A stretch of DNA of 64,000 nt, from the NCBI GenBank assembly GCA_000091205.1, contig AP006502.2; one strand, given 5' to 3'. Position 1 is the stretch's first letter, and every line of letters starts with the position of its first letter. This document shows positions 6,960 through 57,635 of the stretch, piece by piece. The notes under the pieces are model-generated. The model saw only the letters and a program-made list of their open reading frames with translations. It did no database searches and had not been told where the DNA came from. Made by a program: the position numbers and the translations under genes. Source of the DNA: Cyanidioschyzon merolae. Its lineage: Eukaryota.

Positions 6960-8030
6960 AAAGGCAAAAACATGTACGTTCATTCTGAAGAAATGAGAAA
7001 TCCAAGGGAACGTTATGGATATGGGATTCCACGATCCTGGAATCCTTGTGAATATCAGCTGCCAAACAACAATAAAAGTCCACTTCTCATCGACCATTGA
7101 GCGAAAAAGAGCAAGCGACGAAGAAGAAAAAAGGAAATATGGGCGAGTAAGTGTGTGTGCCCGACGGGACGACGACGAGACCGTTGTGGCACAGAGGGCA
7201 CGATTTCGAGGAATTCCTGTATTGATGAGATCGATCGGCCGTGGCGCATTCACGGAGTTCGTGAACCGAGACCTCAACGCCGCCAGCAATATTAGAAGAT
7301 GTACGGTGCTGAAGACGAGACTGGAGAAGCTGCGACGATCCGACTTTGTGGGACAGCCTCTCAGGCTCAAAACGTCCGAGGAAATTCGAAGCCAAGATCA
7401 TCCGGTCGGTGGAAACAGGTTAGGAGGCGTCTGTGAGTGAGTACGCATTTACCCGCCATGCACCTAGAACCCTTTTGGTTTTACTGATCACATGCCGCGG
7501 ACGCTTGGTCGGAGGCCGAACTGGTCTATGATTAGAATCCAGCGCTGAACTGCTCGTTCTGTCTTTCCAATATTTTCCGAACTCTTACGAGGTGTCCAGT
7601 GCCAACATACCAAGCGCACCAATAAGCGCCTACGAATTCAAAAGTCCTGGGAGGACTCCCAGTCGTGTGTGTTCGGAGTGGCCCCTGCGACGCTTCGCCG
7701 CTGACATCCATTACTTCACCGGAATCAAGGTTATTCGCAACGCGCTCAGACAACGATTCCTAAAATAGCCCGTAGCATTGTCCAATGCATACATACAGGC
7801 ATCCAGTCTTCTCCGTTCCGTTTGTGTCGCACGTTCAATTCAGGCATTCGCCAGGTGTTCGGTCTCTCTTTTATTGATGCAACTCGTGGGCGCTGCCATT
7901 TGCGCTGACGGGATTGACGAAGAGAACAAGTCGACGTCGCCCGATGACGATTCCTTTCCGTGCTCGTCCCGAAACGCTGCTGAGCTCGTCACTTGCAATC
8001 ATCGAATCGGTTCAAAGGCGAACCTTCTAT
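6960..8030 (+). mobile_element. RF1 copy A, a Fanzor/TnpB-derived ~1 kb element. It has a conserved 5' leader (GTACGTTCATT...), the TnpB C-terminal RuvC-III remnant ORF at 7015-7440, and a 3' non-coding omega-RNA-like module at ~7560-8030.
   Basis: The ORF fragment ...FTEFVNRDLNAASNIRRCTVL carries the D-x-NAA-x-NI RuvC-III signature of TnpB/Cas12/Fanzor. The same leader, remnant and 3' motifs (for example CAACTCGTGGGCGC at ~7879) recur in the other copies. Confidence 0.6.
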
Positions 8031-13889: not shown

Positions 13890-15104
13890 ATGAATCGGAA
13901 CAGTCGTTTAACAGCACAGAGCACAGTGTTTATAGGGCCCAAGGAGGGCAGCAGCAGCGTCGGGTTGTTTCTCGCTCGCCTCTGGCAACGACGACGACTG
14001 CACAGGCGGGTTCGTGGCGCGAGCCGCAGCCTCCAGGCGACCGCTACACAGCCGCAGTGGTCGCTGGTGCAGGTTGCGCGGCGAGTGCTCTTCCCTCCAC
14101 TATGGGTAGAGCTTGCGCGAGCGCACGTGCTTGCAAAGTTTTCGAGGGCGTTCGAGCAAGTACCGCGCAAGCGACGTGACGGGACGGCGGCACCCGCCGC
14201 AGTGAGCACGGCAGTGGAAGCGGCAGCGGCACCCAGTCCTTCGCGGAACGCAGCTCGTGGAGGACAGGGCGTTAGCCGTACGCAGCTGCTCGGGCGAATT
14301 GTGTACGAGTGGGTAGACTACGACCAACGGCGACTCGTTTGCGCCCGTCAGACAGCAGACGGGGTACCGGTGGTGGACCCGCGCTGCTCCGCCATACCGA
14401 GAACGGAGCGCCTGCGGAACAAGTGGCGGCGCCTGCGGGAGCTTTCGGCAGCATCCAGCGAGCGCGAAGCGGCAGACGGCGCGGGACCGCAGACGGACAA
14501 CGTTGCGCTGGTGGGCGCCCCAGCGGGCCCGCCACCAGTCGAAAGCCCGACGGAACAATACGCAGTCGTTAAGCTTGAATCAGGTCCCGGCACACTGCAC
14601 GAGGATACCGAAGAAGATGCTACTCTAGAACGGTGCGCGGGCCCTGCGCTGGCGCGCTGCTGGAGCGCACCCGAGCTGGGCGACGCCGAAGATGATAGCA
14701 CTCGCTATGAACCAGAGCGCTCGCCGCTGGACTATCTGGGGAACGTTCCGCTGCTATTCACCACGAACACCCCTCAGGGCCGTTTGCTTCAAAGGCGTTT
14801 GCGCGTCGCACGCCTGCAGATGCACCGCCTTGTACGGGAGGGTGTGCGCACGCTCATGCAGAGTGCGCCGCTGCGCCTAGCGCTGGGCGCTCGTCTACGC
14901 TGCTTAGACGGAGCGGCAGCGTACGAATCGCAACGAGAGGCCAGACAAGTCACGAGCGGCCCTGTTAGAGACGCCTCGCCAGCAGCGTGGAAGCGCTTCT
15001 CGGGCGACGGTGTGCTCCGCAGCGTCTCACAAGCGGCGCTCGCAACGCTAGGCACGCTGCGGTGTGAGTGGCCGTTCCACGTTCGTCGTCTGCGGGACCA
15101 GTAG
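13890..15104 (+). CDS. Hypothetical Ala/Arg-rich low-complexity ORF; it may not encode a real protein.
   Basis: Long ORF in a very GC-rich stretch. Other long ORFs overlap it on both strands and no domain was recognised. Confidence 0.2.
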   Translation: MNRNSRLTAQSTVFIGPKEGSSSVGLFLARLWQRRRLHRRVRGASRSLQATATQPQWSLVQVARRVLFPPLWVELARAHVLAKFSRAFEQVPRKRRDGTAAPAAVSTAVEAAAAPSPSRNAARGGQGVSRTQLLGRIVYEWVDYDQRRLVCARQTADGVPVVDPRCSAIPRTERLRNKWRRLRELSAASSEREAADGAGPQTDNVALVGAPAGPPPVESPTEQYAVVKLESGPGTLHEDTEEDATLERCAGPALARCWSAPELGDAEDDSTRYEPERSPLDYLGNVPLLFTTNTPQGRLLQRRLRVARLQMHRLVREGVRTLMQSAPLRLALGARLRCLDGAAAYESQREARQVTSGPVRDASPAAWKRFSGDGVLRSVSQAALATLGTLRCEWPFHVRRLRDQ

Positions 15105-16730: not shown

Positions 16731-18689
16731 ATGGCAGATCCTATCGTGGACATTGCTCCAGACCAAATATTCATTGGTGCAGAGGAGCCCTCAGCGCAAG
16801 TGCACGACGTTGAGTCGAAGGGTGCGGTCGCGGAGGAATCTGACAAGTCCTATATCCGGTACAATGCAATCGGCACTGCACTAGGCTTTCTCGTGAACGG
16901 TTACATGTACCAGGTAGGCACGTTACTTCTAACTCTATATGTGGACGCGTATTATACGGTGTATGCGAGTACGTTTCTACAGTCTGCGCTCTCTACTTCT
17001 GTACTGTACGGCGTTCTCTTTGGGCTCCTTAGCTTTGGATTCATCGCCGATATCATCGGACGCAAGGCCGGTCTCATCGCTTGCTCCTGCATCGTTATAC
17101 TCGGCTCGATCCTGTCCACGGCAGCGAACGGAAAAACAACTGACGGTATGTTCTGGATGATTATCGTCGGACGCGCTGTCGTTGGCCTCGGAATGGGCGG
17201 CGAGTACACTTGTAACGTTCCGAATATCGTTGAGGATAGTGAGGAAGTCAGCACGAAAACGCGCGGACGAAGGGTTTCGCTGCTTGTGATGCTCATGGAG
17301 GTCATCGGGAACAACACACCGACGCTGATCCAGCTGATTCTCATTGCGGCAGCTTGCCGCCACGTCTACATCACTTCATCGTCGTCTACAGGGGTAAGCC
17401 TCCCGAATTGCCGGCCTCAGGTGGTGTGGAGAATCTCCTACGGGCTGGGCCTCATTCCGTGCATCATCGTGCTTTTCTTGCGGGTTCGCATGCGCGATTC
17501 TAAAATGTACCGCAAGGATGAGAATCTAAGACGCAAGTCCTATGATCTACTGGACCTGTTTGTTATTTTCCGACACTTTATCCCACGGATGATCGGCACA
17601 ATCTTCATGTGGTTTCTCATCGACTGGATCAATTACAGCCAAGGCACGTTTGGTGGCGTGATCCTGTCGAGTGTGATCGGGGCATCTCTCTTCAAGACGG
17701 CTTGGATCAGTCTCGCCCAGGGCGTGGTGCTCACTCTCGGGCCAGTTGCGGCTGCTCTGGTCGTGGATCGTCTCGGACGGCGGAAAACGGAGGTCCTCGG
17801 ATGGGCGTGGCTCGCCTCCACGCAGCTGATTACGGCTGGCGTGTACCTCATGCTTGCAAAGCATGCGGTAGGCTACGTTATTTGGACTACTTTCGTATTC
17901 ATTTTCCAGTACTTTGTGTTCATCCCTGTCTATCTGGTCCCGGCTGAAGTGTACCCCACTCGCGTGCGTGCAACGCTCTACGGATGGTCATCGGCGCTCG
18001 GCAAGGTCGGGGGCATTGTCGGAACGACCGTGTTTCCTTACATGTGGAGCGCGCTCTCGCCCGATGGCAACGAGTCCGGCCATAGCGGCCTCCTTGGACT
18101 GCGTAAGATCCAGTGGATCTACGCAGGAATCGAATACTTCGGTTTGATCCTTGCTCTCCTATTTGTCCCGGAGTATAGTAACGTCAGTCTCAGAGGCGAG
18201 GAGAATCGATTCCTGGCCATGCGTGCGCGGTACGCTGCGCGCTTCGCGAAGAGCCTCGGTGCACAGCCCGCACCAGCCGCCTCCTTCGAGAGCATTCAGA
18301 TTGGGCACTACTCCTGGTGGTCCCTGCTCTACCTTCGCCTCTTCCGCAGTCGTGAGGAGTACGCTGCAGCTCTGGAGCAGTACGCTCAGATGCTGCTTGC
18401 GCGCTCCTACATCACCAAGGTGGAGCAGCTCGAGCAGTACGCTGCTGCGCCCGTCTACTACAACGACCGGACGCTGTTCTCGAATCTCATCCGGCGCATC
18501 CGCCTCGGAGCAGAGGGTGCCAGGGAGTACAATCGCCTGTCGGAGCTGATGGGCGAGGAGTCCATGGAGAATCCAGCCTTTGGCGAGCAGCAGGCGAAGA
18601 TCGTGCTGTCTGCGGATGGTGGTTCGAGCGATGAAAAAGTATCGAAGGAAGCAACGGATACCACCACAGACAACAGCATGACCTTTTGA
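16731..18689 (+). CDS. Major-facilitator-superfamily transporter, probably an inorganic phosphate:H+ symporter (Pho84/PHT1-like).
   Basis: About 12 predicted TM segments. GMGGEYTCNVPNIVEDSEE resembles the PHT1/Pho84 signature GIGGDYPLSATIxSE. A central hydrophilic loop and a C-terminal hydrophilic tail are present. Confidence 0.6.
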   Translation: MADPIVDIAPDQIFIGAEEPSAQVHDVESKGAVAEESDKSYIRYNAIGTALGFLVNGYMYQVGTLLLTLYVDAYYTVYASTFLQSALSTSVLYGVLFGLLSFGFIADIIGRKAGLIACSCIVILGSILSTAANGKTTDGMFWMIIVGRAVVGLGMGGEYTCNVPNIVEDSEEVSTKTRGRRVSLLVMLMEVIGNNTPTLIQLILIAAACRHVYITSSSSTGVSLPNCRPQVVWRISYGLGLIPCIIVLFLRVRMRDSKMYRKDENLRRKSYDLLDLFVIFRHFIPRMIGTIFMWFLIDWINYSQGTFGGVILSSVIGASLFKTAWISLAQGVVLTLGPVAAALVVDRLGRRKTEVLGWAWLASTQLITAGVYLMLAKHAVGYVIWTTFVFIFQYFVFIPVYLVPAEVYPTRVRATLYGWSSALGKVGGIVGTTVFPYMWSALSPDGNESGHSGLLGLRKIQWIYAGIEYFGLILALLFVPEYSNVSLRGEENRFLAMRARYAARFAKSLGAQPAPAASFESIQIGHYSWWSLLYLRLFRSREEYAAALEQYAQMLLARSYITKVEQLEQYAAAPVYYNDRTLFSNLIRRIRLGAEGAREYNRLSELMGEESMENPAFGEQQAKIVLSADGGSSDEKVSKEATDTTTDNSMTF

Positions 18690-19844
18690 GGTATGCATGA
18701 TCATGGAAAGTCATGCATTAGCATCATGAACGAGATACGGCTATGTAGAGGCTCCGCATGGAGCGCAGAAACGTCATCGAAAGGAACCGGCGAGCGTTAC
18801 GAAGCGATGTTTCCTGATTGCGTACGCGCTCATGGGGAGACCCATACCAGACGGACGGAAACCCCGCAGGGAAGGACACGCACACCAATAAACTGCAGTT
18901 CAGCTCTCACAACATGTGTCCCAATATCGATACAGCGCTCGCTGGAGTCCGCAGTCATTTCCTGCACCTGCTGCGTTGCCTATACCAGTAGCTGCTGAAT
19001 GGCCACAAGACCGTGGCGCACAGGTCACAATATCGTCTTCTACCTGAGAAAGCAACTTGCTTGATTGCTTGCTTGCTGGTTGCCTGTGCACATAGACGCA
19101 TGGATAGCCGCCTGCTTGCTTTTACGCACACATGCACACATGCATAGTTGGGAAGATGGATGGATAGGTGCGTTTGGTATCTTCTCTGCGCACCATCGCG
19201 GACATCGACGGCTACCAGGTCGCGATTTGCACCCTGAAGTACGAACGTGCGTTTCAGAGCTACTCCACGCTGCCGTATTCGAGAAATGCCTGCACCCTTG
19301 ACGCTGACGATTGCTTCGCAACAGCTGGTAGCGTTCCAGAACGACAGCCGCACCTGGCGCTTGGTGGAAGCACGCTCAAGGATCCTGGACACGAAGCGGG
19401 TGCGCAAGCTATTGAGCGTCTTGGAACTATTATCGAGAACGAAAAAACATAGAGCACAGGGATCGCCTCCGCTCTGGACGCGCTGAAGAAGGTCAGCACC
19501 GATCCCCGGTTGCACGTCGTTCCGAATCGTATCCTGCGTGTCCTGCTATCGGGGTTCTACGTGGCGGGCGGTGGCTGGCTAGCACACAGCACCATACCCT
19601 GTGGCGACTTGTGAGCTCACCGATATCCGCTCAACTGCGCATGATGCACCAGAACGTAGTTTCGCTCATGGGAACACAGATCGCGTTAACGCTAATCAGG
19701 CTCGCGCCTCAGCCTTCTGCCCTAAGCAAAGCAACGAGCATGTTAGACGTGCTGCGGACCTGGCACGTGCAGGATTCTTGTCATAGCACTTCACCTCAAC
19801 TGTGCTCTAGCGCCAAGTGCGTATCATTTAATGTTTTTTTTCGT

Positions 19845-20345
19845 GGTTTAGAGCAAATGCTCTCGAAGTGCGTTCATTTACAAATGTAAAAAGGCTAAGG
19901 TATAGAGATGGAAGTCGCGGATCCTAGAGGGCCTCATTGCCGGCTGTCCGAAAACAAGGAAAAAATCCTCTTTTCGCCGTTCATCGAGCAAGGGAAAGCG
20001 CGCGGCGGCGAAGAAAAAGAGGACAGGTAGACGAGAAAAGGTGCTCGCCTGACGGGACGAGGTCGAGACTGTAGTAGAACAGAGGACACAAGTTCGAGGA
20101 ATCCTTGCAATGGTGAGTTCAACCAGAGGCAGGGTACGCATAGAGTTCGCGAACCGAGAGTTTAACGCTGCTATCAACATCGGGAGATGTGCAGTGCTGG
20201 ACAAGAGACCCCCGGAGCTGATACGAGCCGACTTTGTGGGAGAACCTCTCAGGGTCGAATTGTACGGGATGACGTTGCAACCAGTAGTAGGCGGCCGGTC
20301 CAAAAGACGGGAAGGCGTCTGCACGTGAGTGGGTAGACATCCAGT
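19845..20345 (+). mobile_element. RF1 copy B, 3'-truncated. It has the leader GTGCGTTCATT and the TnpB RuvC-III remnant at 20110-20328, but no 3' module. The RF2 repeat follows ~270 bp downstream.
   Basis: ORF MVSSTRGRVRIEFANREFNAAINIGRCAVLDKRPPELIRADFVGEPLRVE.... The leader DNA is homologous to copies A and C. Confidence 0.6.
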
Positions 20346-20612: not shown

Positions 20613-20900
20613 TGAACCACGCCTCGAGCCGACGCCCTCTGTGGTATAGAAAAACTGTTCTAGCTCGGTGAACTATCTGCTCCAGCATTTAAGGTGCAAA
20701 GGCGGACACGGAAAGGCAGGTAGTAGGCACACACAATAGGACATGTGAAACGACCAGAATATCCGAGAAAAAAGTCTGGGGAATGGAGCTTGGAAGCAGG
20801 GCATTTAATGGATACCTCACCGCGCACTGAAAAAAAACACAAAAAAAGTAAGAAGAAATGCACATAATCGGAGAACGCTGCCCCAAGTAAACGTTTTGTC
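20613..20900 (-). repeat. RF2 repeat, copy 1 (minus orientation), ~285 bp, directly upstream of the PGM gene.
   Basis: Its reverse complement matches the 41387-41670 and 57363-57635 copies: AAACGTTTACTTGGGGCAGCGTTCTCCGATTATGTGCATTTCTTCTTAC, a long T-rich tract ending in ...TTTTTTTTCAGTGCGCGGTGAGGTATCC..., and ...TACCACAGAGGGCGTCGGCTCGAG. Confidence 0.7.
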
Positions 20901-30886: not shown

Positions 30887-31990
30887 ATGTACGTCGTCTC
30901 GGGACGTGCCGCGATCTGCGCGCATGCCGCAGCGCGACGTCTTCTCAGAATATCTCAGGTTCTGCGTTCGCCGTCTGTCGCCCTTTCCAGAAAGCGCGAT
31001 ATCATGTTCGTAAGCGCTTGCTGCAACGGAACTCGTAACTTAATTGCGGTTCAGCGTCAACGCCGCGTAAAAACCAGCCGTTCAGGAGGATTCGCGTGTA
31101 CAAGGCGCTTTGGACCGCGGCTGAAGAGGCTTCCACGCCTCGTGGCGGCTGTCGAGAAAGAGACCGAAAAGGTCCAGGGGTCGGTCAACGGGTCAGACGC
31201 TGACGCCGACGGTGGTCTTCAGGGCTACAAGAGCACTGATCCGCGAACAGGCGCGAGTCGCGAACTCAGTTTGGGCGAGAAAGAACGTCTGTACTTGGAG
31301 GCAGTGTATTCGTTTTACAACGGGGAACCGATTCTCAGCAACGAGGAGTTTAACGTTTTAAAGGAGGACCTGCAGTGGAATGGATCACAAGTCATCCTTA
31401 TGAACCGAGACGAACAAAGGTTCCTGAACGCCGCTCAAGCGTTCTACAACGGCAAACCTATAATGAGCGATGAAGATTTCGACGCACTCAAGGATCGTTT
31501 ACGGAAGCAGGGCTCCCAGATTGCCCTACAACAGGGCCCTCGTTGCAACATCGAAACTGGCGTGTGTTACAGTGACTGTCAAGTTGATAAGTTGCGGCAA
31601 GCGGTTATCTACGCACCGGCTGCTGGTATCGGCGCCCTGCTCTGGGCTGGGTTAAGTTTCGAGCTGACCCCGCTGCGACACGTCAACCCGGTCTGGAATC
31701 TGTTCATTGGGGCCCCCGTCATATACGCCTGCGCGCAGCTCCTGACGGGGATCGTGCTTCAAAATGATCCACAGATTGTGGTCGGAGAATGCCCATCTTG
31801 TGGATCGGAACAGCGAGTATTCTTCGGTGACATTCTCGGTGTTGAGGGTTATCGCGATGTAGCCGAAATCAAATGCGAGCGTTGCAAGGCGTCGCTGCGC
31901 CTCGACCGCAAACGCATGCGCCTAGAACAGATCCCGCGTATCCAGGGACCATCCATCAAACAGCGAGAGAACGTAGCACCAGCGTCGTAG
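30887..31990 (+). CDS. PGRL1: PGR5-like protein 1 (PGRL1), a thylakoid cyclic-electron-flow protein, with an N-terminal transit-peptide-like extension.
   Basis: EQRFLNAAQAFYNGKPIMSDEDFDALKDRL matches the PGRL1 repeat. Two TM helices are present. The paired cysteine motifs GECPSCG and KCERCK correspond to the PGRL1 redox/iron-binding cysteines. Confidence 0.8.
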   Translation: MYVVSGRAAICAHAAARRLLRISQVLRSPSVALSRKRDIMFVSACCNGTRNLIAVQRQRRVKTSRSGGFACTRRFGPRLKRLPRLVAAVEKETEKVQGSVNGSDADADGGLQGYKSTDPRTGASRELSLGEKERLYLEAVYSFYNGEPILSNEEFNVLKEDLQWNGSQVILMNRDEQRFLNAAQAFYNGKPIMSDEDFDALKDRLRKQGSQIALQQGPRCNIETGVCYSDCQVDKLRQAVIYAPAAGIGALLWAGLSFELTPLRHVNPVWNLFIGAPVIYACAQLLTGIVLQNDPQIVVGECPSCGSEQRVFFGDILGVEGYRDVAEIKCERCKASLRLDRKRMRLEQIPRIQGPSIKQRENVAPAS

Positions 31991-32349
31991 TTGTGGGCGA
32001 TCGAACTTCACGATTTGGCCCAGATGGAAAGCACTGGGATTCCTCGTGACACCGTTCCGAAAATCGATTTGAAAGGCTTGCGTCGTTCGTTGGTATGCAA
32101 AGCCCAATAGAGGCCAGCAACAGATGCGTCTGTGTCAATGTTAAACGGCTGTAAACCAGCCTTCGCCATATGCTTGCTCCTGCACATAACCAATTGCACC
32201 AATATTCGAAGAATGCGCACTTCACCGCTGTAGCGCCGAAATGCGACTGTACCAGTCATCCGATGTGCGAGTCGAGGCTTTGGGGTAGCTTCGCTCGTGC
32301 GTGCAAAGGCATGCGTCGAGACGATAGAGTGCGTATAACTAGTATGCCC

Positions 32350-33240
32350 CTACTCACAGGCGCTTCCCAGCCTTTTTGATTGGCTCCCTGCTATCGTCTT
32401 CAGTTTTTCCCTGTGCACTTCCAGCCTGAGAGGCTGTCCCACACATTTGGCTCGTGTCAACTCCGGGTGTGTCGTGTTCAGCACCGCACATATCCTTATA
32501 ATGAAGACGGCGTTGGCGTCCCGGTTCTCGAACTCTATGAGTTTCTTGCCGATGCCTGTACGCACCCGTGCGAGGAGTCCTGGAGCTCGCGCCCTGTATA
32601 CCATTTGCTGCTCAGTCAGCGCAATGTACTTTTCCATCTCCGAAGTGCTCCGCCGGATTTCCTCCATCGCGACCTTCTGAAGTGCGCAGCCCAGATCATA
32701 GTGTATACATACGATGTTCGGATCTCATCTATCCGTACCGTTACGAAATGATGTGCGCACTCCTCGTTCAATCGCGTAGATGGAGCGAGCATGCTCCCTT
32801 TTTTGGACGCCCGGCGTCTTGCTCCATCGACGAGAGCATACAAGGAGTGCGCATATCACGTCAACGCGGTACCGATAGACGACTTCCGAACATCGTACGT
32901 ATATACTATGATCTGGGCTGCGCACTTCAGAAGGTCGCGATGGAGGAAATCCGGCGGAGCACTTCGGAGATAGAAAAGTACATTGCGCTGACTGAGCAGC
33001 AAATGAAGAGGAGGGCGAAAACTCGGGGACTGCTTGTATTGGTGAGTACAAGCGGCGGCAAGAAACGCATGGAGTTTGTGAACCGAGACTTTAATGCTGT
33101 TATCAATACCAGAAGATGTGCGGTACTGGAGAAGAGACCCCCAGCGTTGACACGAGCCAAATTTGTGGGAGAACCTCTCAAGGTCGAATTCTACGAGAAG
33201 AAGTTGAAAACAGTCGTAGGTGGCCGGTCCAAATAGAAGC
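32350..33240. mobile_element. RF1 copy D, a ~900 bp near-perfect palindrome made of two head-to-head RF1 remnant arms (left arm 32350-32790 on -, right arm 32800-33240 on +).
   Basis: ORF 32350-32667(-) reads ...IEFENRDANAVFIIRICAVL.... ORF 32568-33236(+) reads ...MEFVNRDFNAVINTRRCAVLEKRPPALTRAKFVGEPLKVE.... The reverse complement of 32641-32720 is almost identical to 32893-32975. Confidence 0.7.
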
Positions 33241-33925
33241 GGAGGCGTCCGCACGTTGGTGTATAGACACGTCGAGTCTACGGCGGACGGACGCGCGCTC
33301 TTCGCGAAGGCCTCCGATCAGCACACGCAATATGCCCTGCGCGTAGGGCTTGCTTGAGGTGCAGACGTCGTTTCGATACGCTCTCGCTTTCGTGAACAGG
33401 CGTTCCTGGTGACGTTCATCTGATAACTAGGGTCTTGCACAATGCACAAACCGGCTTTCCTACACATAGGTTCACTCAGCTTGAACTCGGGCACCAGTGT
33501 GCGCTGGTTAAGGCCGTGTGCGAAAACTCACGCGAGCTGTTGCCGAGTGCTTGTGACGCAGAACCCAGCGTTCCGTGTGGCGCGCACCGGGACGAGCAGC
33601 TCTCACCACTGCAGGCTACGGACTACGAAATCGAGACTTTTCATGGCTTCTGGGCAGGTAGGTATCTTTACGCCGGTCGTCATTGTTGCGCGGGCAATTC
33701 TAGGGAAACAACGCTTCGAGAAAATTCGAGGTAGGGGCATTGCGCTCCACTCGCAGGCTATCACGAACTTTTGTAAGTTTGCAGGTGTCGACAATAAAGT
33801 TCGCCAAGGTCTCATTCGCATGGCGAAAGCGAATGGTAGCAAACTGGGTTTCCTGTCATGAAATGCTCTCTTCATAGCGGGATGAGCGACTCGGCTGCTG
33901 CGCGTGAAGCGCAGCTTGTGGATCC

Positions 33926-34762
33926 CTAGGCGGACTCACGTGCCCACAAAGCGAGGCCGCCGCCGCGACCACGACCAGCAAGAATTCTTGAATCTACGAA
34001 GAAAAAAGTGAAGAACGGCAGACGACGTCGATCTTTCAAGTCAAGCGCTTCTAAAGATGTTGGCCACTTCTTGATGCGTATTCGGGGCAATGTCGCGCCC
34101 ATTAAATGCAAACGGAACTCGCAAAAGTCAAACATTAGGCGCCGCTGCTTCGGTTCGAACATCCATGGTCCAGCAAACTTGATGCCCGCGAGCCTGAACG
34201 GTAAGTGAGCCTCATTCGTAACGGCACGCGCTATGACGGACCCGTGGTTTTCAACGCTAAACTGTATCCTCGCTTCCAGTGGGAAATACAAGCCCGCCCT
34301 TAAGCTCGAAGGGAGTTCGCCTCGTCTCAGCCGCTCAGAGAGCGAGTTCTGTGCAGACTTTTGGATGCTATAGACCAGTCTCCAGCTTCCTTCGAGCTCC
34401 TTCTCTGTCCATAAGCCAGCAGGCTCTCCGCTCTGTCCCGACTTACCCGCTTTCACCCATCTCTCAAGAAAGAGAAGCGCTGTCCCGACTGAGGTGACGT
34501 CTGGAGCGGGCGCTCTGAAAACGGCGGGTGCTGCAGCCGACTCCGTGGTATTGTAGTGCAAGCTGCGAGAAAGCACAGAACCCGCTGCCGCGTGCAGTAC
34601 CTGCACAGCCTCTTTGGGTGCTTCAAAGCCAGCCCTTCTGGGACTTGCACGAACAGCCTTCCACGGCGTTCTTGAACTCGAACTCGCCCGCAGTAGCGCA
34701 ACGCTGAACATAGAGCCTAGCGAGATAGCGCTCGAACACGGGAACACAAGGCACAAACGCAC
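33926..34762 (-). CDS. Hypothetical protein, possibly PAP/fibrillin-like. Its 3' end overlaps the annotated start of the TFIIH p44 ORF.
   Basis: GSWRLVYS and a C-terminal FDFCEFRL resemble fibrillin W-L-Y-S and F-D motifs. The match is weak. Confidence 0.25.
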   Translation of the reverse strand: MRLCLVFPCSSAISLGSMFSVALLRASSSSRTPWKAVRASPRRAGFEAPKEAVQVLHAAAGSVLSRSLHYNTTESAAAPAVFRAPAPDVTSVGTALLFLERWVKAGKSGQSGEPAGLWTEKELEGSWRLVYSIQKSAQNSLSERLRRGELPSSLRAGLYFPLEARIQFSVENHGSVIARAVTNEAHLPFRLAGIKFAGPWMFEPKQRRLMFDFCEFRLHLMGATLPRIRIKKWPTSLEALDLKDRRRLPFFTFFFVDSRILAGRGRGGGLALWARESA

Positions 34763-37494: not shown

Positions 37495-37749
37495 TGCACC
37501 ACGACCCCGACCACCACCACCACCTCCACCACCAACACCACCAAGAACAGAGACGAGTGATTATGAAAACCGGAATAGGTGGTATGGATTCGGGTACGAA
37601 CGCGCTATGCGCGCTACGCCCGTGCGTAAGCTTGAATCCGAGTCCTGAGCGACTCGGTTTGCTCCGGTCTCCCCATGATTCATCGGTATTTCCATTCGAT
37701 TGTTTTCGATCTCCAAGTGCGTTGAATCAAATGCTTTTTCGTGGGTTGT

Positions 37750-38740
37750 AGCGGACGCGTTCGGAGTGCGTTCATTAGAAGAAATGAAAAATCAAAGGGA
37801 AAGGTACGGGCATGGAGGTCGCGGATGCTAGAGGGCGTTGATCGCCTGGTACCGAAAAGAAGAGGAAAAAATCCTCTGCTCGTCGACTGTCGCGCGATGA
37901 AGACCAAGTGACGAAGGCGAAGAAGAAGAGACAGAGAGGGAATCGTTTAGAAAACAGGTTTGTCTGACGGGATGATGGCGAGACTGTATTGGCACAGAGG
38001 GCACGAGTTCCAGCAATCCGTGCATTGGTGAGTTCCACTGGCGTCCATGCATGCAGGGTTCTCGTGAACGAAGACTTGAACGTCCGCATCCGTATCAGAC
38101 GATATCCGGTGCTGAAGAAAAGACCTGAGGAGACGATGCGATCCGAGTTCGTGGAGCAGCTTGTGACGCTTGTATTATGCAGGGAGAAATTGAAACCGAT
38201 AACAGTCTGCAGGTCGAAAAAGGCCGAGAAGCGCCTGCGAGGGGGTATCTATTTACCAACCACATTCGCACAGCGTTTTCCGTTTTATTCACGATATTCA
38301 TCGAACCTGCTTCACATGTACGGCCTCGAGATTCCAAGTGCACCAAATAGGGTTTACAGCTTCATACCGAGATCCTTGGTTCTCGGTCGTGTTTTTCGAG
38401 TGGCTTCTTCGAATCTCTGCATCTGGAATTCGTTGTGTTACTGGACTCAAGATGATTCGCGAAGCCCGCGAACAACCATTCGTAAAGCAACCGATATCAG
38501 TAAGCCATTGATCCATACAAACCTCCGGTCTGCTAATTTCCAAATGCAGAGCATTCTCGACTCATGCCTGCTTCGAGTTTTCGATGTTTATGGTTCAGGG
38601 CAACTCGTGAGCAAAGCGATTTGCGCCCTGGATTGACGACAAAAGCGGTCGACGTCATCCCGTGATGACTGGTTCACAAACTAGTATAGAGAGGTCACTG
38701 AAATTCTCCCGTCAAATAAACGATTCCGTTCGAAAGATGT
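37750..38740 (+). mobile_element. RF1 copy C, full length. It has the leader, a degenerate TnpB C-terminal remnant (37989-38260) and the 3' omega-RNA-like module (~38330-38740).
   Basis: Leader GTGCGTTCATTAGAAGAAATGAAAAATCAAAGGGAAAGG. The remnant reads ...VNEDLNVRIRIRRYPVLKKRPEETMRSEFVEQLV..., with the NAA degraded. The 3' motifs are CTGGACTCAAGATGATTCGCGA...CAACTCGTGAGC...GTCAAATAAACGATTCCGTTCGAAAG. Confidence 0.6.
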
Positions 38741-41386: not shown

Positions 41387-41670
41387 AAAACGTTAACTGG
41401 GGCCAGCGCTCTCCGATTATGCGCATTTTTCTTTTCTTACTTTTTTTTTGTGTTTATTTTTCAGTGCACGGTAAAGTATTCATCAACTCCTACCTCCAAG
41501 TTACATTACCCAGACTTTTTTCTCGGATACGCTGGTCGTTTCATACGTCCTATCGTGTGAGCCTAGTACCTGCCGAAAGCGACCGCTATGGCGCCTATAG
41601 CGCCGGTGCGGTCGCTGCACGGAGACAGAACGGCGTTGCCGTAGCACACACAGAGGGCGTCGGCTCGAGG
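41387..41670 (+). repeat. RF2 repeat, copy 2, upstream of (and opposite in orientation to) the PRPP synthetase gene.
   Basis: AAAACGTTAACTGGGGCCAGCGCTCTCCGATTATGCGCATTTTTCTTTTCTTACTTTTTTTTTGTGTTTATTTTTCAGTGCACGGTAAAGTATTCATCAACTCCTACCTCCAAGTTACATTACCCAGACTTTTTTCTCGGATACGCTGGTCGTTTCATACGTCCTATCGTGTG...CACGGAGACAGAACGGCGTTGCCGTAGCACACACAGAGGGCGTCGGCTCGAGG. Confidence 0.7.
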
Positions 41671-42439
41671 AGCAGCGCCTGGACGCCGCGCACAAAGGTG
41701 CGCGGATCTCCACCAAATGAGCGCTCGGCATGCAACATGACGCAACTGCCTTGAACGAATGCCTCCACGGATCGATGAAAATCGTGTTATCTCTGCTTGA
41801 CGTGTACCATGGGCGTTGCACTCTGAGCGTTGCGGGATCGATCAAGCGTGTAGCGTTACGGGGAATACGGGTCCAGGGTTCAGATACGCAAAAACGTCTG
41901 GATGAGCGCATCGATTTCATTTCCGATTACCGATGGCAATCTGGTTCAGTACATCGACCATGTACCATAAAAGCAGGGTGCAATCGGGGTAGCGCTTCGT
42001 TGTGTGCGTCACGGCAATTCAATAGCTTTGCCAAGTCTTAGAGAAATATCTTGGGGTTGACGCGTTCGAGTCGCTTCGCCGAAGAGATGCGAGGCACCAC
42101 GGGTGCCGGCGTTAGAGCGCACCGCTTCGCCTGCTCCGAAACGGACCCGCATCGTCGCCTGGCCGTATTGAGGATGCCAATTCCCGGTACTGATGATACG
42201 GTCGAAGATGCTGGGGATTGCGTGACGGGCGCCTGCTACCTGTCGCATGTGCGGCCAAGTCTCTGTTGCACGCGGAGGCACCGCAGGAGCAGAGAGACTT
42301 CTCCAGTTCTGGAACTCGTCGCCCAGAGCGATGAACGCGCCTGCGAGGCTGCCGAATACCCAGTCCAATTTCGACTTGCGGAACGTACGCTGACTCCTCT
42401 TATTGTATGGATGCCGTTTCGTGAACAGCGGTTTATGCC

Positions 42440-52528: not shown

Positions 52529-55500
52529 ATGTGTCGCATGGTTGCGTACTTTGGGCCGGCAATTTTAGCAGCGGACGTTGTGACGAGGCCGTCGCGCTCG
52601 ATCATTCGCCAATCGTACGATGCACGGGAGCGTCTTTGTTCCGCAGGCGAGTATGTGCCTGCCTCGCTAAACGGAGACGGCTATGGTATTGGTTGGTATA
52701 GCGACGACGGCGTACCTTGCGTCTACAAGTCCATCAGACCCGCTTGGAACGACGCAAACCTGCACCACCTTGCGGAAAAAGGTATCCGTTCGCACTTGCT
52801 GTTCGCGCACGTTCGCGCTGCCACGGCGGGAACTTCCGTTACCGAGGAATCCTGCCATCCCTTCGCCTATGGACGCTATTTATTCCAGCACAATGGAACT
52901 ATTGCAGGCTGGCATGACGGTCGAGTGCGTCGTGCGCTTCTCAATCAGCTGAATGATGAACTGTACGGTTACGCTGTTCGAAACGGTGCAAGCGATAGCA
53001 TCGTGGCCTTCGCGCTCTTCCTGAACCAGATGGATCGCGGCACATCTGAGCGCTATAGCGCTGCAGAGCTGCAGGAAATGCTGCTTCACACCATTGCACT
53101 GATTGTAGAGACCACGACGACGTGCCTGTTGGGGACAAACTCTCCGTGTTCGGATAGAACGCCCGCAAATCGGAAAAGCATGCCACGTGATGACGTGTTT
53201 CTTTTGAATTTCCTGGTAACGGACGGTGAGACGCTACTGGCAACCAAGTATGTACGTGGACTCCGGGACCTGGATGCTCCGGCAGCTAGTCTGTATTTCG
53301 GAGCAGCGTCGTCGTACGGGCCAGTCACGCATCACGTTGGAACCGGTGCCGAAGACTATGCCTTCTCGTATCGAGCAGCAACCTGGGCGGGGGTCGTTGT
53401 TGTAGCCAGTGAGCCGCTGACGTCGAACCCGTGCGACTGGGTCCCGCTCCCTCGCAACTCGATACTGGTGGCTACCGCAGATCGACATTTGCTTGTGGAA
53501 AAGATGCCCGATCTACTGATGGGCCGCGAATCACCGCGAGCGGGTTCGCGTTTGTCGCCCAAGTTGCTGCCCCAGTCTAGTGCGCTTGTGCAAGCGTTGC
53601 ACGCTTTCGCAGGATCCACAGCGACGCGTTCCATTGCTGATCGCGGGGATCCGTTGCCGCCTATGAGGAGCGCAACTGCTGCGGCTCACGTCAGCTGGAG
53701 CCGACAACAGCAACACCAGGAGCAAGAGCGGCGCAAGAAACCTCTCTTACGGAGCAGTCAACAGGAACTAAGTAGCGCTGGAAGTGGCGCAATATCCACC
53801 GATTTGATTGAAATCGATGAATCAGATCGCTTGTTCACGATCCGTAGCAGCCGAGTGCTTTGCATGACGACAGTGCCTGTGCAGGAGGATGCACTGCCAC
53901 AAATAGCGCAGGAGCTGGAAACGATGCCATTATCTGCAGCGACGGCAACGAGTAATCGGTCTGGATGCACCGGGTCGCAACGTCAAGCCCTGCTCGTATG
54001 CGGTACTGGTGATGGTCATATGTATGCACTGCACCAGATATCGGGTCTGCTGGCGTCGGATAGTTTCGTCTCTGCGGATGGACGTGATATTCTGGGGATC
54101 GCTCGCTGGCAATGCAACAACCTCGCTGCGTACTTTGAGCAGAAGGGCATGCAACCGTCGGCAACGTTCACGGTCTGTGCGGCAGCAGATAACACCGTTC
54201 GCATGCATCGTTGGACTGTGGACGGTATAGAGGAGATTGCGAACTTTTTCTGCGGTACTGCAACGGGACACCCACTCTGTCTGGTCACCGATCAAAGTGC
54301 CGTGTATCTTGGGTTTCAAGACTGTTCGGTTCGTCGCCTCGATATGCAGGGACTCCTCGGCACGGTGAAAGTGGAACCAGAGGCTCGTCCGGAGGGAGCG
54401 GCTCACGTGCCTGTACTATCCGAACAGGCGCTTTTTCGCCGTCTGGGTCAGCGCGGAGAGCATAGCGACTTGGCACGCGCAAGTCAGCACTGTGGACCTG
54501 TTTACTGTTTGGCGCTTCACTCGAAAACTCGCCGACTCTTTTCTGGTTCCGGTGATGGAACCATTGCGGTCTGGAATACTGAAAGTGAAGAGCACGAAGC
54601 AACCCTGCGTGGCCATTGCGGCGCGGTACTTGCACTGAAACTCGACGAAAATGTGGATATCCTCTTCTCTGGGGCCAGGGATCGACGGATTCGTGTTTGG
54701 GATGTCGCTCGGAGTGCGAATTATGTCTGCCGACGAATTCTTCTCAGTTGGGACTATCACTGCGATGATATCTGTGCCCTAGAACTGTCCGAGTCATTCC
54801 TGTTTTCTGCATCCACCGACGGCGTCGTGGTGCTGTGGAGTCGCCCGGACCTCGCGGCGTTGGCACTGTTGCGTCTGCCGTCCGGAACGCTGTTGACGTC
54901 GCTGTGCGTCACACCGGACGCCTCAGCGATGCGTCCTGCAGCTACTTCGGATGCTATGAGCACGTCCGGTATGCTGTTTGCGGCGACCAGCGACGGCAGT
55001 GTCTACGGTTGGCATCTAGGCGCTTCGGGGTCATTGTACGGACGCATTTACGGGACGGATGCCGCTGACCTGGAAGGTACATCGCGGGTGCCTACGAAAA
55101 CGCTGCCCACAACAGCGGCATCATCTTGCGCTGGCTCTCTCGAAGCCGCAACACCGAATTCCATGCTGTTTTCGCTCAGCTCGCCACGTATTCGACTTGG
55201 AGATCCCGAATGGTCGAGTGTTGCGGCATTTGAGAGAGCCCTACGGACAGCGATTCGTTTTCGATCCATCGCTGTGGATACGAAGCAGTCCAACTTCCGT
55301 GAAGAGTCTTTTCATTGTGCGCGCTGGTTCTCGCGTCTTCTGGAGAACCTCGGAGCCGACCTGCGCATCGCACAACCAGTGGATGGAAAGAATCCCGTCA
55401 TACTCGCTCGTTTTGTCGATATCATTGGATGCAAGGGGCACGCGTGTCGCCCCGGGCCTCCCGCTTTCCCGTCGTCGCTGGCTCGAGCGCGTGTCCAGCA

Positions 55501-57103
55501 TCGCCATACCGTAGACGCAGCGCATGACGGTGAGCGTGAACATCAGGCACAGCAAGTGCGACGGCAGCATTTCCGTCAAACCGTTGTATTCTACGGGCAC
55601 TACGATGTCGTTCCCGCCCACCGGGAAGACGGCTGGTCTCACGATCCCTTTGATCTGCAGGTTTCGAATGGCTACTTTTATGGCAGGGGATGCACAGACA
55701 ACAAGGGCCCGATCCTTGCGATGATCTTCGCGATTGTTGATTTGCTCCAGGAGCAGCAACAGTGGCGGCATCAGCAGCGAAACATTCCAGCTGATCACGA
55801 GTTGGCGCCTCGCACAGCAGCAAACACGCTGACGAGTTCGACGAGGACTGTTCCGCCGCCTGCGGAGAGCGTGCATGCGGCAGTCTCGGCAGGTGCCTGC
55901 GACAACATCCATGGAGCATGTGACGATTTCGAACGCTCAACGAACGTGGTCCTCTTACTCGACGGTGAAGGCGAGGCCTCTAGTGCCGGCTTCCGTGAGA
56001 CCATCGCTCTGTTTAGAGACTGGATCGTGGGCAAGGATCTCGATCAGCGGCAAGCGGGCCAGCAGCTCGTTCCGAATGGCGACCCGCGTCCCGCACCGAA
56101 CGAGCCTGTTCCCCAGGTGGTTTGCGTCCTGCACGCGAACAGTCTCTGGGTTGATGATGTGCGTCCCTGTATCACGTACGGAATGCGGGGCCAGATCCTG
56201 CTCTCTGTGGAAATAACCGGTCCTTCGGGGAACTTGCATTCCGGCTTCGATGGTGGTGCTGTTCTGGAGCCAGCCGCTGACCTGTTGGCGATTCTGGCTA
56301 CACTGAGCGATGCCGGAGGCACCGCGCGTGTACCCGGCTTCTACGATGATGTGCGAGAGCTCACGCCCAGCGAGCGCTCCTGGTTGTCCGCAGTCCATTT
56401 CGATCGGCAAGCTTACCTCCAGCACTTGGGTGTTTCCCGTCTCGCAGCGGATAACGACTTGGATTTGCTGCAGAAACGCTGGTGTCAGCCGTGTCTCTCG
56501 ATCACAGAGCTGTCAACGAGCGCGAACGCAGTTGCAAATGGAGCTGCTTCGGCTGCGAGAAGCAGCACTGGTCGACTGGGTGCGATCTCTGCGCTCATAC
56601 CGCAGCGCGCGCAGGCAACGGTGGCGATTCGGACGGTCCCGAATCAGAGCCCGGAAAAGCTCCGAGCTGCAGTGGAGCAGCATCTGCACTTCGAGTTTGC
56701 GAAAAGACGCTCTCCGAACCAGCTGCGGATCACATGCACCAAACAGGGTGACTGGTGGCTCGGCGATATTCACGGGGAACGGTACCCGTCGTCGTCGTCG
56801 TCGTCGTCGAGGCAAGTCGAACAGCGTACCGGCTGTGAACAGCGCGCGCGACAGCGAGTCTTCGCCGTCTCTGAACGTGCCATCGAGCGCGTCTGGGGCG
56901 TGCAGCCGCTCTATGTTCGAGAGGGCGGCAGCATGCCGCTAACAGCGTGGCTAGAGCAGACACTAGAGGCGCCTGCGATCCACTTGCCTCTGGGGCAGTC
57001 CAGTGATGCACCGCACCTGCCGAACGAGCGCATCCGGGTGTTGAACTTGTTCCACGGTCGCATGATTCTCGGTGATATTGTTCGTTCGCTGGCGGTGCAA
57101 TGA
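52529..57103 (+). CDS. Tripartite fusion protein: class-II (Ntn) glutamine amidotransferase (Dug3-like), WD40 repeats, and an M20 metallopeptidase (Dug2-like). It corresponds to the glutathione-degrading DUG pathway.
   Basis: N-terminal MCRMVAYFGPA with the Cys2 nucleophile, plus YGIGWYSDD...HVRAATAG...HPFAYGRYLFQHNG. WD40 blocks HCGPVYCLALHS...SGSGDGTIAVWN and ...GARDRRIRVWDV. M20 motifs VVFYGHYDVVPA and GRGCTDNKGPILAMIFAI, with the metal ligands DGEGEA. Confidence 0.75.
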   Translation: MCRMVAYFGPAILAADVVTRPSRSIIRQSYDARERLCSAGEYVPASLNGDGYGIGWYSDDGVPCVYKSIRPAWNDANLHHLAEKGIRSHLLFAHVRAATAGTSVTEESCHPFAYGRYLFQHNGTIAGWHDGRVRRALLNQLNDELYGYAVRNGASDSIVAFALFLNQMDRGTSERYSAAELQEMLLHTIALIVETTTTCLLGTNSPCSDRTPANRKSMPRDDVFLLNFLVTDGETLLATKYVRGLRDLDAPAASLYFGAASSYGPVTHHVGTGAEDYAFSYRAATWAGVVVVASEPLTSNPCDWVPLPRNSILVATADRHLLVEKMPDLLMGRESPRAGSRLSPKLLPQSSALVQALHAFAGSTATRSIADRGDPLPPMRSATAAAHVSWSRQQQHQEQERRKKPLLRSSQQELSSAGSGAISTDLIEIDESDRLFTIRSSRVLCMTTVPVQEDALPQIAQELETMPLSAATATSNRSGCTGSQRQALLVCGTGDGHMYALHQISGLLASDSFVSADGRDILGIARWQCNNLAAYFEQKGMQPSATFTVCAAADNTVRMHRWTVDGIEEIANFFCGTATGHPLCLVTDQSAVYLGFQDCSVRRLDMQGLLGTVKVEPEARPEGAAHVPVLSEQALFRRLGQRGEHSDLARASQHCGPVYCLALHSKTRRLFSGSGDGTIAVWNTESEEHEATLRGHCGAVLALKLDENVDILFSGARDRRIRVWDVARSANYVCRRILLSWDYHCDDICALELSESFLFSASTDGVVVLWSRPDLAALALLRLPSGTLLTSLCVTPDASAMRPAATSDAMSTSGMLFAATSDGSVYGWHLGASGSLYGRIYGTDAADLEGTSRVPTKTLPTTAASSCAGSLEAATPNSMLFSLSSPRIRLGDPEWSSVAAFERALRTAIRFRSIAVDTKQSNFREESFHCARWFSRLLENLGADLRIAQPVDGKNPVILARFVDIIGCKGHACRPGPPAFPSSLARARVQHRHTVDAAHDGEREHQAQQVRRQHFRQTVVFYGHYDVVPAHREDGWSHDPFDLQVSNGYFYGRGCTDNKGPILAMIFAIVDLLQEQQQWRHQQRNIPADHELAPRTAANTLTSSTRTVPPPAESVHAAVSAGACDNIHGACDDFERSTNVVLLLDGEGEASSAGFRETIALFRDWIVGKDLDQRQAGQQLVPNGDPRPAPNEPVPQVVCVLHANSLWVDDVRPCITYGMRGQILLSVEITGPSGNLHSGFDGGAVLEPAADLLAILATLSDAGGTARVPGFYDDVRELTPSERSWLSAVHFDRQAYLQHLGVSRLAADNDLDLLQKRWCQPCLSITELSTSANAVANGAASAARSSTGRLGAISALIPQRAQATVAIRTVPNQSPEKLRAAVEQHLHFEFAKRRSPNQLRITCTKQGDWWLGDIHGERYPSSSSSSSRQVEQRTGCEQRARQRVFAVSERAIERVWGVQPLYVREGGSMPLTAWLEQTLEAPAIHLPLGQSSDAPHLPNERIRVLNLFHGRMILGDIVRSLAVQ

Positions 57104-57362: not shown

Positions 57363-57635
57363 AAACGTTTTCTTAGACCAGCGTTTTCCGATTGTGTGCT
57401 TTTTCTTTTCCTACTTTTTTCGTGTTTTTTCAGTGTGCTTTGAAATATCCATCAAACCCGCTACCTCCGAGTTACATTACCTATACTTCTTCTCGGATAT
57501 TTTCGTCGTTTCATGTGTTCTATCGCACACCTTATGCCTGCCCTAATCATCCGCAATAGCGTCTTTACCTTTGGTCCAGTTGCATCACGGAGACAGAACG
57601 GCGTTGCCGTACCACAGAGGGCGTCGGCTCGAGCT
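57363..57635 (+). repeat. RF2 repeat, copy 3, between the DUG-fusion gene stop codon and the ORC4-like start.
   Basis: AAAACGTTTTCTTAGACCAGCGTTTTCCGATTGTGTGCTTTTTCTTTTCCTACTTTTTTCGTGTTTTTTCAGTGTGCTTTGAAATATCCATCAAACCCGCTACCTCCGAGTTACATTACCTATACTTCTTCTCGGATATTTTCGTCGTTTCATGTGTTCTATCGCACAC...CACGGAGACAGAACGGCGTTGCCGTACCACAGAGGGCGTCGGCTCGAG. Confidence 0.7.

Follow-up and report, generated by a model that had tools for sequence, protein, structure and literature searches.

Head-to-head 3' ends of the Fanzor1 element CMe-1A form a decayed palindrome in Cyanidioschyzon merolae

Fanzor1 elements such as CMe-1A encode an RNA-guided nuclease but nothing that can be recognised as a transposase. CMe-1A is one Fanzor1 family described in Cyanidioschyzon merolae (Bao and Jurka, 2013; PMC3627910), the 150 or so copies of which are roughly 80% identical to a consensus of 3169 base pairs (bp). 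This consensus encodes Fanzor1 only and carries neither TnpA nor terminal inverted repeats; the target-site duplication could not be determined, the class was given as unknown, and the 5' 635 bp are common to a separate element, TE-N2_CMe (PMC3627910). No palindromic forms of CMe-1A are described in that paper, and a 2024 paper on the dispersed repeats of C. merolae contains nothing on palindromes or on this family (PMC11050394). Here we analyze an inverted repeat present in a stretch of 64,000 nucleotides (nt) of chromosome 20 of C. merolae 10D (called the window below, all coordinates being those of the whole stretch), the arms of which are 5'-truncated 3' ends of CMe-1A placed head to head. 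The locus is a decayed, rearranged copy of the published family, with an architecture which is slightly unusual and recurrent.

The inverted repeat and the element from which its arms derive

An inverted-repeat search, a mismatch map and a blastn comparison of the region with its own reverse complement delimited two arms and a core of higher identity inside them:

32374-32789, unstranded: left arm of the inverted repeat, ungapped, 416 nt, 78% complementary (inverted-repeat search)
32818-33233, unstranded: right arm of the inverted repeat, ungapped (inverted-repeat search; blastn against the reverse complement)
32602-32722, unstranded: left half of the near-identical core, 121 nt (mismatch map and identity profile)
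32885-33005, unstranded: right half of the near-identical core, 121 nt (mismatch map)

The centre of the repeat lies at 32803.5, very near 32805, where the original prediction had placed it, and the arms are separated by a spacer of 28 nt. In the blastn comparison, 32419-33188 matched its own reverse complement at 78.3%. The inverted repeat had also been called near-perfect, which applies to the core alone: its two halves differ at 3 of 121 nt (about 97.5% identity, with a perfect run of 67 nt inside). Given a complementarity of 78% overall, a 28-nt spacer and only one internal block of 101-121 nt that is near-perfect, the locus is not a near-perfect palindrome prone to form cruciforms. Counted in 50-nt bins from the centre outward, the identity between the arms is 58, 76, 98, 98, 66, 74, 70, 76, and 60%; it is at background beyond about 450 nt from the centre, and the extent of the repeat is roughly 32355-33255. 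The inner 75 nt of each arm are matched at 58-76% and the outer 230 nt or so at only 66-76%, and the outer edge of the core is abrupt, with six mismatches in succession (33006-33011). Folding of the region as single-stranded DNA gave -317 kcal/mol, as compared with -134 +/- 6 in shuffled sequences (z = -31). The repeat does not continue into the flanks, which are unrelated, the similarity between the arms ending inside the last 100 nt of the element. An assembly artefact was considered and rejected: the structure was assembled independently in several metagenomes, the arms are 22% different, and contigs L001 and L011, from independent metagenome assemblies of related strains, span the whole structure.

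The arms were assigned to CMe-1A using the consensus and the CMe-1 protein available in the supplementary files of PMC3627910 (supplementary file 2 in the case of the consensus). The following features were recognized:

32357-32827, minus strand: left copy, a 5'-truncated 3' fragment of CMe-1A, spacer included; consensus 2613-3083 (blastn, nhmmer, tblastn)
32821-33285, plus strand: right copy, a 5'-truncated 3' fragment of CMe-1A; consensus 2652-3114 (blastn, nhmmer)
32350-32667, minus strand: left remnant open reading frame (ORF), 105 amino acids (aa), a C-terminal Fanzor segment with an internal Met start (translation)
32940-33236, plus strand: right remnant ORF, 98 aa, with its stop 14 codons ahead of the consensus stop (translation)
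32500-32526, minus strand: RuvC-III remnant NRDANAVFI in the left ORF (translation)
33081-33107, plus strand: RuvC-III remnant NRDFNAVIN in the right ORF (translation)
32712-32732, minus strand: remnant of the RuvC-II region, IDEIRTS, off-frame relative to the downstream ORF (translation; CMe-1 has VDEFRTS)
32875-32895, plus strand: remnant of the RuvC-II region, IDDFRTS, off-frame relative to the downstream ORF (translation; comparison with CMe-1)
32896-32901, plus strand: 2-nt insertion (frameshift) relative to the consensus, present in both arms, with its mirror at about 32706-32711 (alignment with the family consensus)

In blastn searches, the left copy (32825-32357) matched the consensus at 73% over 475 columns (E 1e-72) and the right copy at 79% over 468 columns (E 6e-109), while nhmmer, run with two family models based on metagenome copies, placed the left copy at 32827-32356 and 32828-32356. 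At the protein level, the right ORF is 78% identical to the Fanzor1 protein CMe-1 (E 8e-52), and CMe-1 itself could be aligned from RuvC-I to RuvC-II with another Fanzor1 taken from PMC3627910 (E 3e-6). The 73-79% identity of the arms to the consensus is near the value of about 80% typical of the published copies, but the feature in the window is an inverted duplicate of the 3' sixth of the element rather than a copy. Remnants of a TnpB-type gene had been predicted here from the DNA alone, and the matches with a Fanzor1 element confirm this; the head-to-head arrangement, in which the truncated 5' ends meet at the centre, and the pair of mirror-image ORFs were also correctly recognized.

RuvC-I (GADPGNTN) is located upstream of consensus 2613 and hence outside both arms, and the 2-nt frameshift separates RuvC-II from the ORF in both of them. 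Because of this truncation and this frameshift, neither arm can encode a nuclease. The ORFs bear F(V/E)NRDxNAV, a sequence similar to RuvC motif III of TnpB-type nucleases, and IDE(I/F)RTS, similar to motif II, lies upstream in another frame; RuvC-III is the only motif inside the ORFs, and no complete RuvC triad is present in one frame. No match to the four ORFs of the arms was obtained in Pfam, a near-full-length homologue (locus L010) gave only a sub-threshold match in Pfam to PF07282 at the RuvC-III motif (E 0.036), and a phmmer search of the PDB gave no match. Protein searches returned only short relatives, all of them from hot-spring metagenomes, the best non-orthologous match to the right ORF being 73% identical; the contigs carrying these relatives hold near-full-length genes with GADPGNTN (RuvC-I), VDEFRTS, and NRDFNAAINI. 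Both ORFs are missing from the protein collection that includes the neighbouring 10D proteins from NCBI, and an orthologue of the left ORF (P0007) is called in metagenomes.

The element had also been described as an IS200/605-like transposon moving as single-stranded DNA. This description does not fit CMe-1A, the published consensus of which lacks TnpA and terminal inverted repeats and is of unknown class (PMC3627910). The likeness to IS200/IS605 resides in the protein remnant, which is that of a TnpB-type RuvC nuclease; the differences are the absence of TnpA from CMe-1A and the fact that the tail hairpins of the CMe-1A-type family have no covariation support. A scan of the large ORFs of the window, which was not exhaustive, detected no transposase domain.

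Other traces of the family occur in the window. Two internal-deletion derivatives of CMe-1A, at 19837-20338 and at 37686-38126 (extending to about 38250), consist of consensus 790/840-969 (the 5' untranslated region and the first 20 codons or so) joined to about 2840/2908-3099, and 7177-7440 is probably similar. The fact that the first two carry nearly the same deletion suggests that they may belong to a non-autonomous deletion subfamily that itself spread. Three fragments, at 20613-20800 (minus strand), 41489-41671 (plus strand), and 57461-57633 (plus strand), are 74-80% identical to consensus 84-265, which falls within the 5' 635 bp common to TE-N2_CMe. In the metagenome copies, tandem repeats of about 75 nt (units of 24-25 aa, QEVQDNDFIVD..KHEE) are located just upstream of RuvC-I (L010:2415-2718; also L003, L043, L047, L048, and L061); two versions of a single locus, L048 and L061, have numbers of units that differ by one, and the published C. 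merolae consensus has apparently only about one unit.

The junction, and similar palindromes in hot-spring metagenomes

The spacer between the arms could be assigned to one of the two copies:

32790-32817, minus strand: 28-nt spacer, Fanzor coding sequence continuing the left copy, about consensus 2620-2650 (family models and consensus)

The left copy starts 39-41 nt earlier in the element than the right one (2613 vs. 2652), a point on which the two models and the consensus agree. Since the left-copy alignments run through the spacer to about 32827 (covering 32790-32827), the spacer is left-copy sequence and not foreign filler. At the junction, CGGAGCAG and CAGCTCCA occur in the consensus at a distance of about 30 nt from each other, with 5 nt perfectly inverted and 6/8 overall, a length compatible with chance. 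The arms have 53 changes relative to the metagenome-family consensus in common; these shared changes, the shared 2-nt frameshift, and the fact that the outer half of the left arm is nearest, among all the sequences compared, to the right arm all argue for one event rather than two.

The locus is probably a non-functional relic, formed as an inverted duplication of the last 470-500 nt or so of one CMe-1A copy through fold-back. What we infer is synthesis by fold-back, the template being a single strand that had itself been copied from the 3' end of the element. One strand would have been copied from this end inward, halting near consensus 2613, and would then have folded back on the inverted microhomology GGAGC ... 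GCTCC, the two parts of which are about 30 nt apart; the folded strand would have primed its own complement back to the 3' end. Such a process would yield two arms that point outward with their 3' ends and are truncated symmetrically on the 5' side, the 28-nt loop between them being part of one arm. The arms would subsequently have drifted to 78%, some patches being re-homogenised by arm-to-arm gene conversion. The original prediction had envisaged a hairpin-mediated duplication of an IS200/605-like element: the hairpin or fold-back part gives the best fit with a spacer taken from one arm and an inverted microhomology, while the type of element envisaged is not supported.

The architecture is not confined to the window. 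A scan of metagenome contigs yielded 80 loci with CMe-1A-type copies, corresponding to 48 distinct 3' flanks, among which five head-to-head palindromic loci with three different junctions were found, all with symmetric truncation and short spacers:

L048/L061: spacer 47 nt; arms about 1 kb; arm identity 73-80%
L037/L039: same junction as L048; arms incomplete, the contig ending in the left arm; identity 75-81%
L092: same junction as L048; arms incomplete, the contig ending in the left arm
L042/L084: spacer 35 nt; arms cut by the contig end; identity 88%
L055: spacer 40 nt; arms about 1.2 kb; identity 81-84%

In the two complete palindromes (L048 and L055), each arm reaches the 3' terminus of the element and the flanks differ. 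In L042, it is again the longer copy that provides the spacer (35 nt) together with 11 nt more, which is the same geometry as in the palindrome of the window. Other arrangements were limited to a single tail-to-tail pair (L059) and a single tandem pair (L076), both without symmetric breakpoints.

These loci bear on the idea that two 5'-truncated CMe-1A copies were inserted independently, came to lie head to head by chance and were later homogenised in part. In its favour, the outer halves of the two arms have different affinities, the right arm being consensus-like (82-84%) and the left one sharing states with the deletion derivatives, and gene conversion between the arms is demonstrated (see below). 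However, the two truncation points are at most 40 nt apart, with the longer copy supplying the spacer, and the arms have the frameshift and derived sites of the inner region in common; symmetric truncation was also found at the three other junctions, at about residues 429, 530, and 565 of the consensus protein. Since truncation is symmetric at four different junctions, we consider two independent insertions very improbable.

In yeast and tumour genomes, breaks close to short inverted repeats are known to be repaired with the formation of fold-back inversions. These inversions resemble the present palindrome in their short spacer derived from one arm, their inverted microhomology of a few bases and their mirror arms starting at the junction, but they copy any flanking DNA, from kilobases up to chromosome arms, whereas the arms here end within or at the 3' end of the transposon. 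The same kind of event could have taken place on the chromosome: after a break inside a resident CMe-1A copy, the resected 3' tail would have snapped back on the same microhomology, and repair synthesis would have made the second arm, replacing the 5' part of the element. The junction geometry expected in this case is the same, the spacer coming from one arm and a microhomology being present, and the repair outcome is a known one. Repair synthesis, however, need not stop at the end of the element, and one palindrome junction found beside three unrelated flanks is unexpected if repair took place in situ. Since the repeat does not leave the element, either here or in the two complete palindromes found elsewhere, we regard break repair as unlikely.

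The junction found beside three unrelated 3' flanks is that of L048/L061, L037/L039, and L092, which have the same spacer sequence; corresponding arms are 87-96% identical between these loci, as against 75-81% within a locus. The fact that one junction is associated with three flanks, with arms closer between than within loci, points to one palindrome having spread, the L048-type palindrome possibly being a derivative that multiplied as a unit. The palindrome of the window might likewise have arisen elsewhere and arrived ready-made, as a mobile palindromic derivative of CMe-1A, a possibility in line with this shared junction and with the closeness of its arms between loci. Against it, the arms in the window are closest at the DNA level, among the sequences compared, to their own orthologues and to one another, the best non-orthologous protein match to the right ORF is the one at 73% given above, and no second copy of the junction or of the arms was found, the full C. 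merolae genome not having been searched. A ready-made arrival seems distinctly improbable. Fold-back in the course of copying remains the reading that we favour. The palindromes recur with their 3' ends out and with loops of 28-47 nt, they are confined to the element, and one junction stands beside three flanks: together, these features suggest a copying process initiated at the 3' end, with a product able to fold back on itself.

Strain comparisons, gene conversion and points that weigh against fold-back

CMe-1A sequence is absent from the syntenic regions between the PGRL1 and Ssl1 genes in Cyanidiococcus yangmingshanensis and in two further members of the Cyanidiales, where the distance to a small conserved ORF (33643-33861 in the window) is 640-1080 nt less. 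Since these sister genera have no CMe-1A at the site, the insertion is specific to the C. merolae lineage. Within this lineage, L001 matches the window at 99.59% along 6.8 kb (28 substitutions, without any insertion or deletion), and L011 is 98.99% identical, the sole difference in length being a 3-nt gap (33255-33257) just outside the 416-nt arms. The same structure is present in two other strains (three further metagenome assemblies) that are 99.0-99.7% identical; no structural variants were seen and the orientation of the spacer is the same in every assembly. Contigs L012 and L098 break off within the repeat, as is common where short reads meet repeated sequence. The unstable break hotspot that had been predicted is not what this comparison reveals: two other strains have kept both the structure and the orientation of the spacer, and the 3-nt gap lies outside the arms. 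Ten of the 28 differences from L001 fall within the palindrome, which makes up 13% of the aligned region; their density is like that of the adjacent intergenic DNA, and the palindrome is evolving at about the neutral rate.

A short stretch of the right arm differs between strains in a way that involves the other arm:

32981-32993, plus strand: minimum left-to-right gene-conversion tract in the 10D lineage (strain comparison with mirror states; consensus)

At 32981-32984 and 32993, 10D has CATT..T, which is the mirror state of the left arm, while L001 and L011 have TGGA..A, in which the glycine codon GGA present in the family consensus (KYG) is retained. The right arm of 10D is thus equal to the left arm at five differing positions that lie within 13 nt. 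This is most simply read as a recent conversion in the 10D lineage, running from left to right and covering 13 nt or more, and earlier conversions of this type would account for the core of 121 nt. The palindromes of the human Y chromosome show a similar picture, with near-identical patches and polymorphic tracts in which one arm is overwritten; the difference is that here only about 120 of 450 nt are homogenised, the rest being at 66-76%, and conversion is therefore occasional rather than a form of maintenance. The locus provides a compact natural example of patchy gene conversion between arms, caught as a polymorphism between strains.

Several observations weigh against an origin by fold-back from the 3' end. 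Taken alone, a microhomology of 5-6 nt is weak evidence, and copying from the 3' end is inferred only from the structure. The arms also stop short of the end of the consensus (3169 positions), the right arm aligning only as far as 3114 and the left arm as far as 3083; of the conserved tail of the family, about 115 nt long, they cover only roughly the first half. By eye, the arms could be extended to the canonical 3' terminus (about 32197 and about 33411), but nhmmer gives no support for this, and in a permutation test the extension of the right arm was equalled by 34/2000 shuffles and that of the left arm by 205/2000, the former being only suggestive and the latter not significant.

The two arms have also accumulated changes unequally. 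In the outer half (32357-32601 vs. 33006-33250), polarised by the family consensus, the left arm has 51 changes and the right arm 15 (about 3.4 times fewer), distributed over codon positions as 16/18/17 and 3/3/9, respectively; a second outgroup gives 38 vs. 11, whereas the inner part is balanced (7 on the left, 10 on the right). Arms born identical should not differ in this way. Many of the left-arm states are those of the deletion derivatives located elsewhere in the window, and among all the sequences compared no donor for the left outer half is closer than the right arm itself (75%). A deamination-type signature was rejected as the cause of the left-arm excess, the spectrum being mixed (32 transitions and 27 transversions). 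The asymmetry and the states shared with the derivatives call for a further assumption, either ectopic conversion or a hybrid origin. The most economical one would be ectopic conversion in patches, with family members not sampled here as donors.

The last of these observations is that the ratio of non-synonymous to synonymous substitution rates (dN/dS) between the arms is 0.44 and that both frames of about 100 codons are open, whereas in a simulation of neutral decay, run at the observed divergences of the arms from the consensus, the frame is kept in only about 16% and 6% of cases. Some coding constraint is possible, as is the import of 'selected' differences from elsewhere. These same data would fit with the locus being functional, either as a hairpin-RNA locus giving small interfering RNAs (siRNAs) or as a pair of small coding genes kept by selection, and the long potential hairpin and the conservation of the structure in all the strains sampled would also agree with this idea. 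The changes between strains nevertheless occur at the intergenic rate, non-synonymous ones included; the ORFs lack RuvC-I and an in-frame RuvC-II and are not in the collection containing the neighbouring 10D proteins, no Rfam family matched 31900-33950, and the locus is absent from sister genera. In plants, flies and fungi, loci giving hairpin siRNAs can resemble the present one, being inverted transposon duplications that yield double-stranded RNA if transcribed through, but the host is different here: Cyanidiophyceae, including C. merolae, are reported to have lost Dicer and Argonaute (PMC12770821; PMC9812998). For this reason the siRNA source that was originally proposed as silencing the family would not be viable. 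Selection for any function of the locus seems extremely unlikely.

TnpB and Fanzor elements normally encode a guide RNA in their 3' end. In the metagenome family (loci L002-L097), about 115 nt of non-coding sequence past the Fanzor stop (consensus 3075-3169) are conserved as a tail, in which three segments capable of forming hairpins and an invariant-looking ACTACTGTACAC box were observed. By its position, this tail is plausible as the guide-RNA region. RNAalifold predicted no pairs on the alignment of the family tails, and three hairpins drawn by hand were paired in 75% of the cells, with covariation not above that of shuffled alignments. An attempt to define the ends of the element from the near-identical copies L003, L010, L043, and L047 was abandoned, all four being one locus.

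Genomic setting and significance of the palindrome

The DNA of the window is compact and intron-poor, with 54% G+C and about one gene per 3 kb, and its genes include those for IleRS, phosphoglucomutase, TFIIH-Ssl1, ORC4, and PRPP synthetase. Four of the proteins encoded, CMT283C among them, agree with C. merolae 10D entries in every residue. The palindrome is intergenic: the gene on its left (30887-31990) is the orthologue of PGR5-like protein 1 (PGRL1), and on its right a small conserved gene (33643-33861, plus strand) corresponds to an ORF of about 72 aa, for which no Pfam domain is recorded and which is kept at the DNA level (70-77%) at the syntenic site in Cyanidiococcus and two other Cyanidiales. 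Two other parts of the window are worth recording. The proteins encoded at 13890-15104 and 16731-18689 (CMT283C and its neighbour) belong to 90%-identity clusters shared with second entries from the same chromosome, such as CMT643C, which suggests that the CMT283C region may have undergone segmental duplication within chromosome 20. A single ORF of 1524 aa (52529-57103, plus strand) combines, according to Pfam, a class-II glutamine amidotransferase, WD40 repeats and a peptidase M20, an uncommon set of domains; the ORF might represent a gene fusion, or neighbouring genes that are read in a single frame.

In itself the palindrome is of little importance, being a decayed intergenic rearrangement with no sign of present function. 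Its interest lies in what palindromes of this kind may say about the family. It is conceivable, though we think it improbable, that the mobility of CMe-1A repeatedly gives rise to head-to-head dimers with outward-facing 3' ends, which can be mobilised in turn, the palindrome of the window being one fossil of this process. If this were true, CMe-1A would be copied from its 3' end via a single-stranded intermediate, and the 3' end would be the sole requirement in cis for mobility; confirmation on the scale of the whole genome would narrow down the mechanisms by which these elements might move and would define a new class of non-autonomous derivative.

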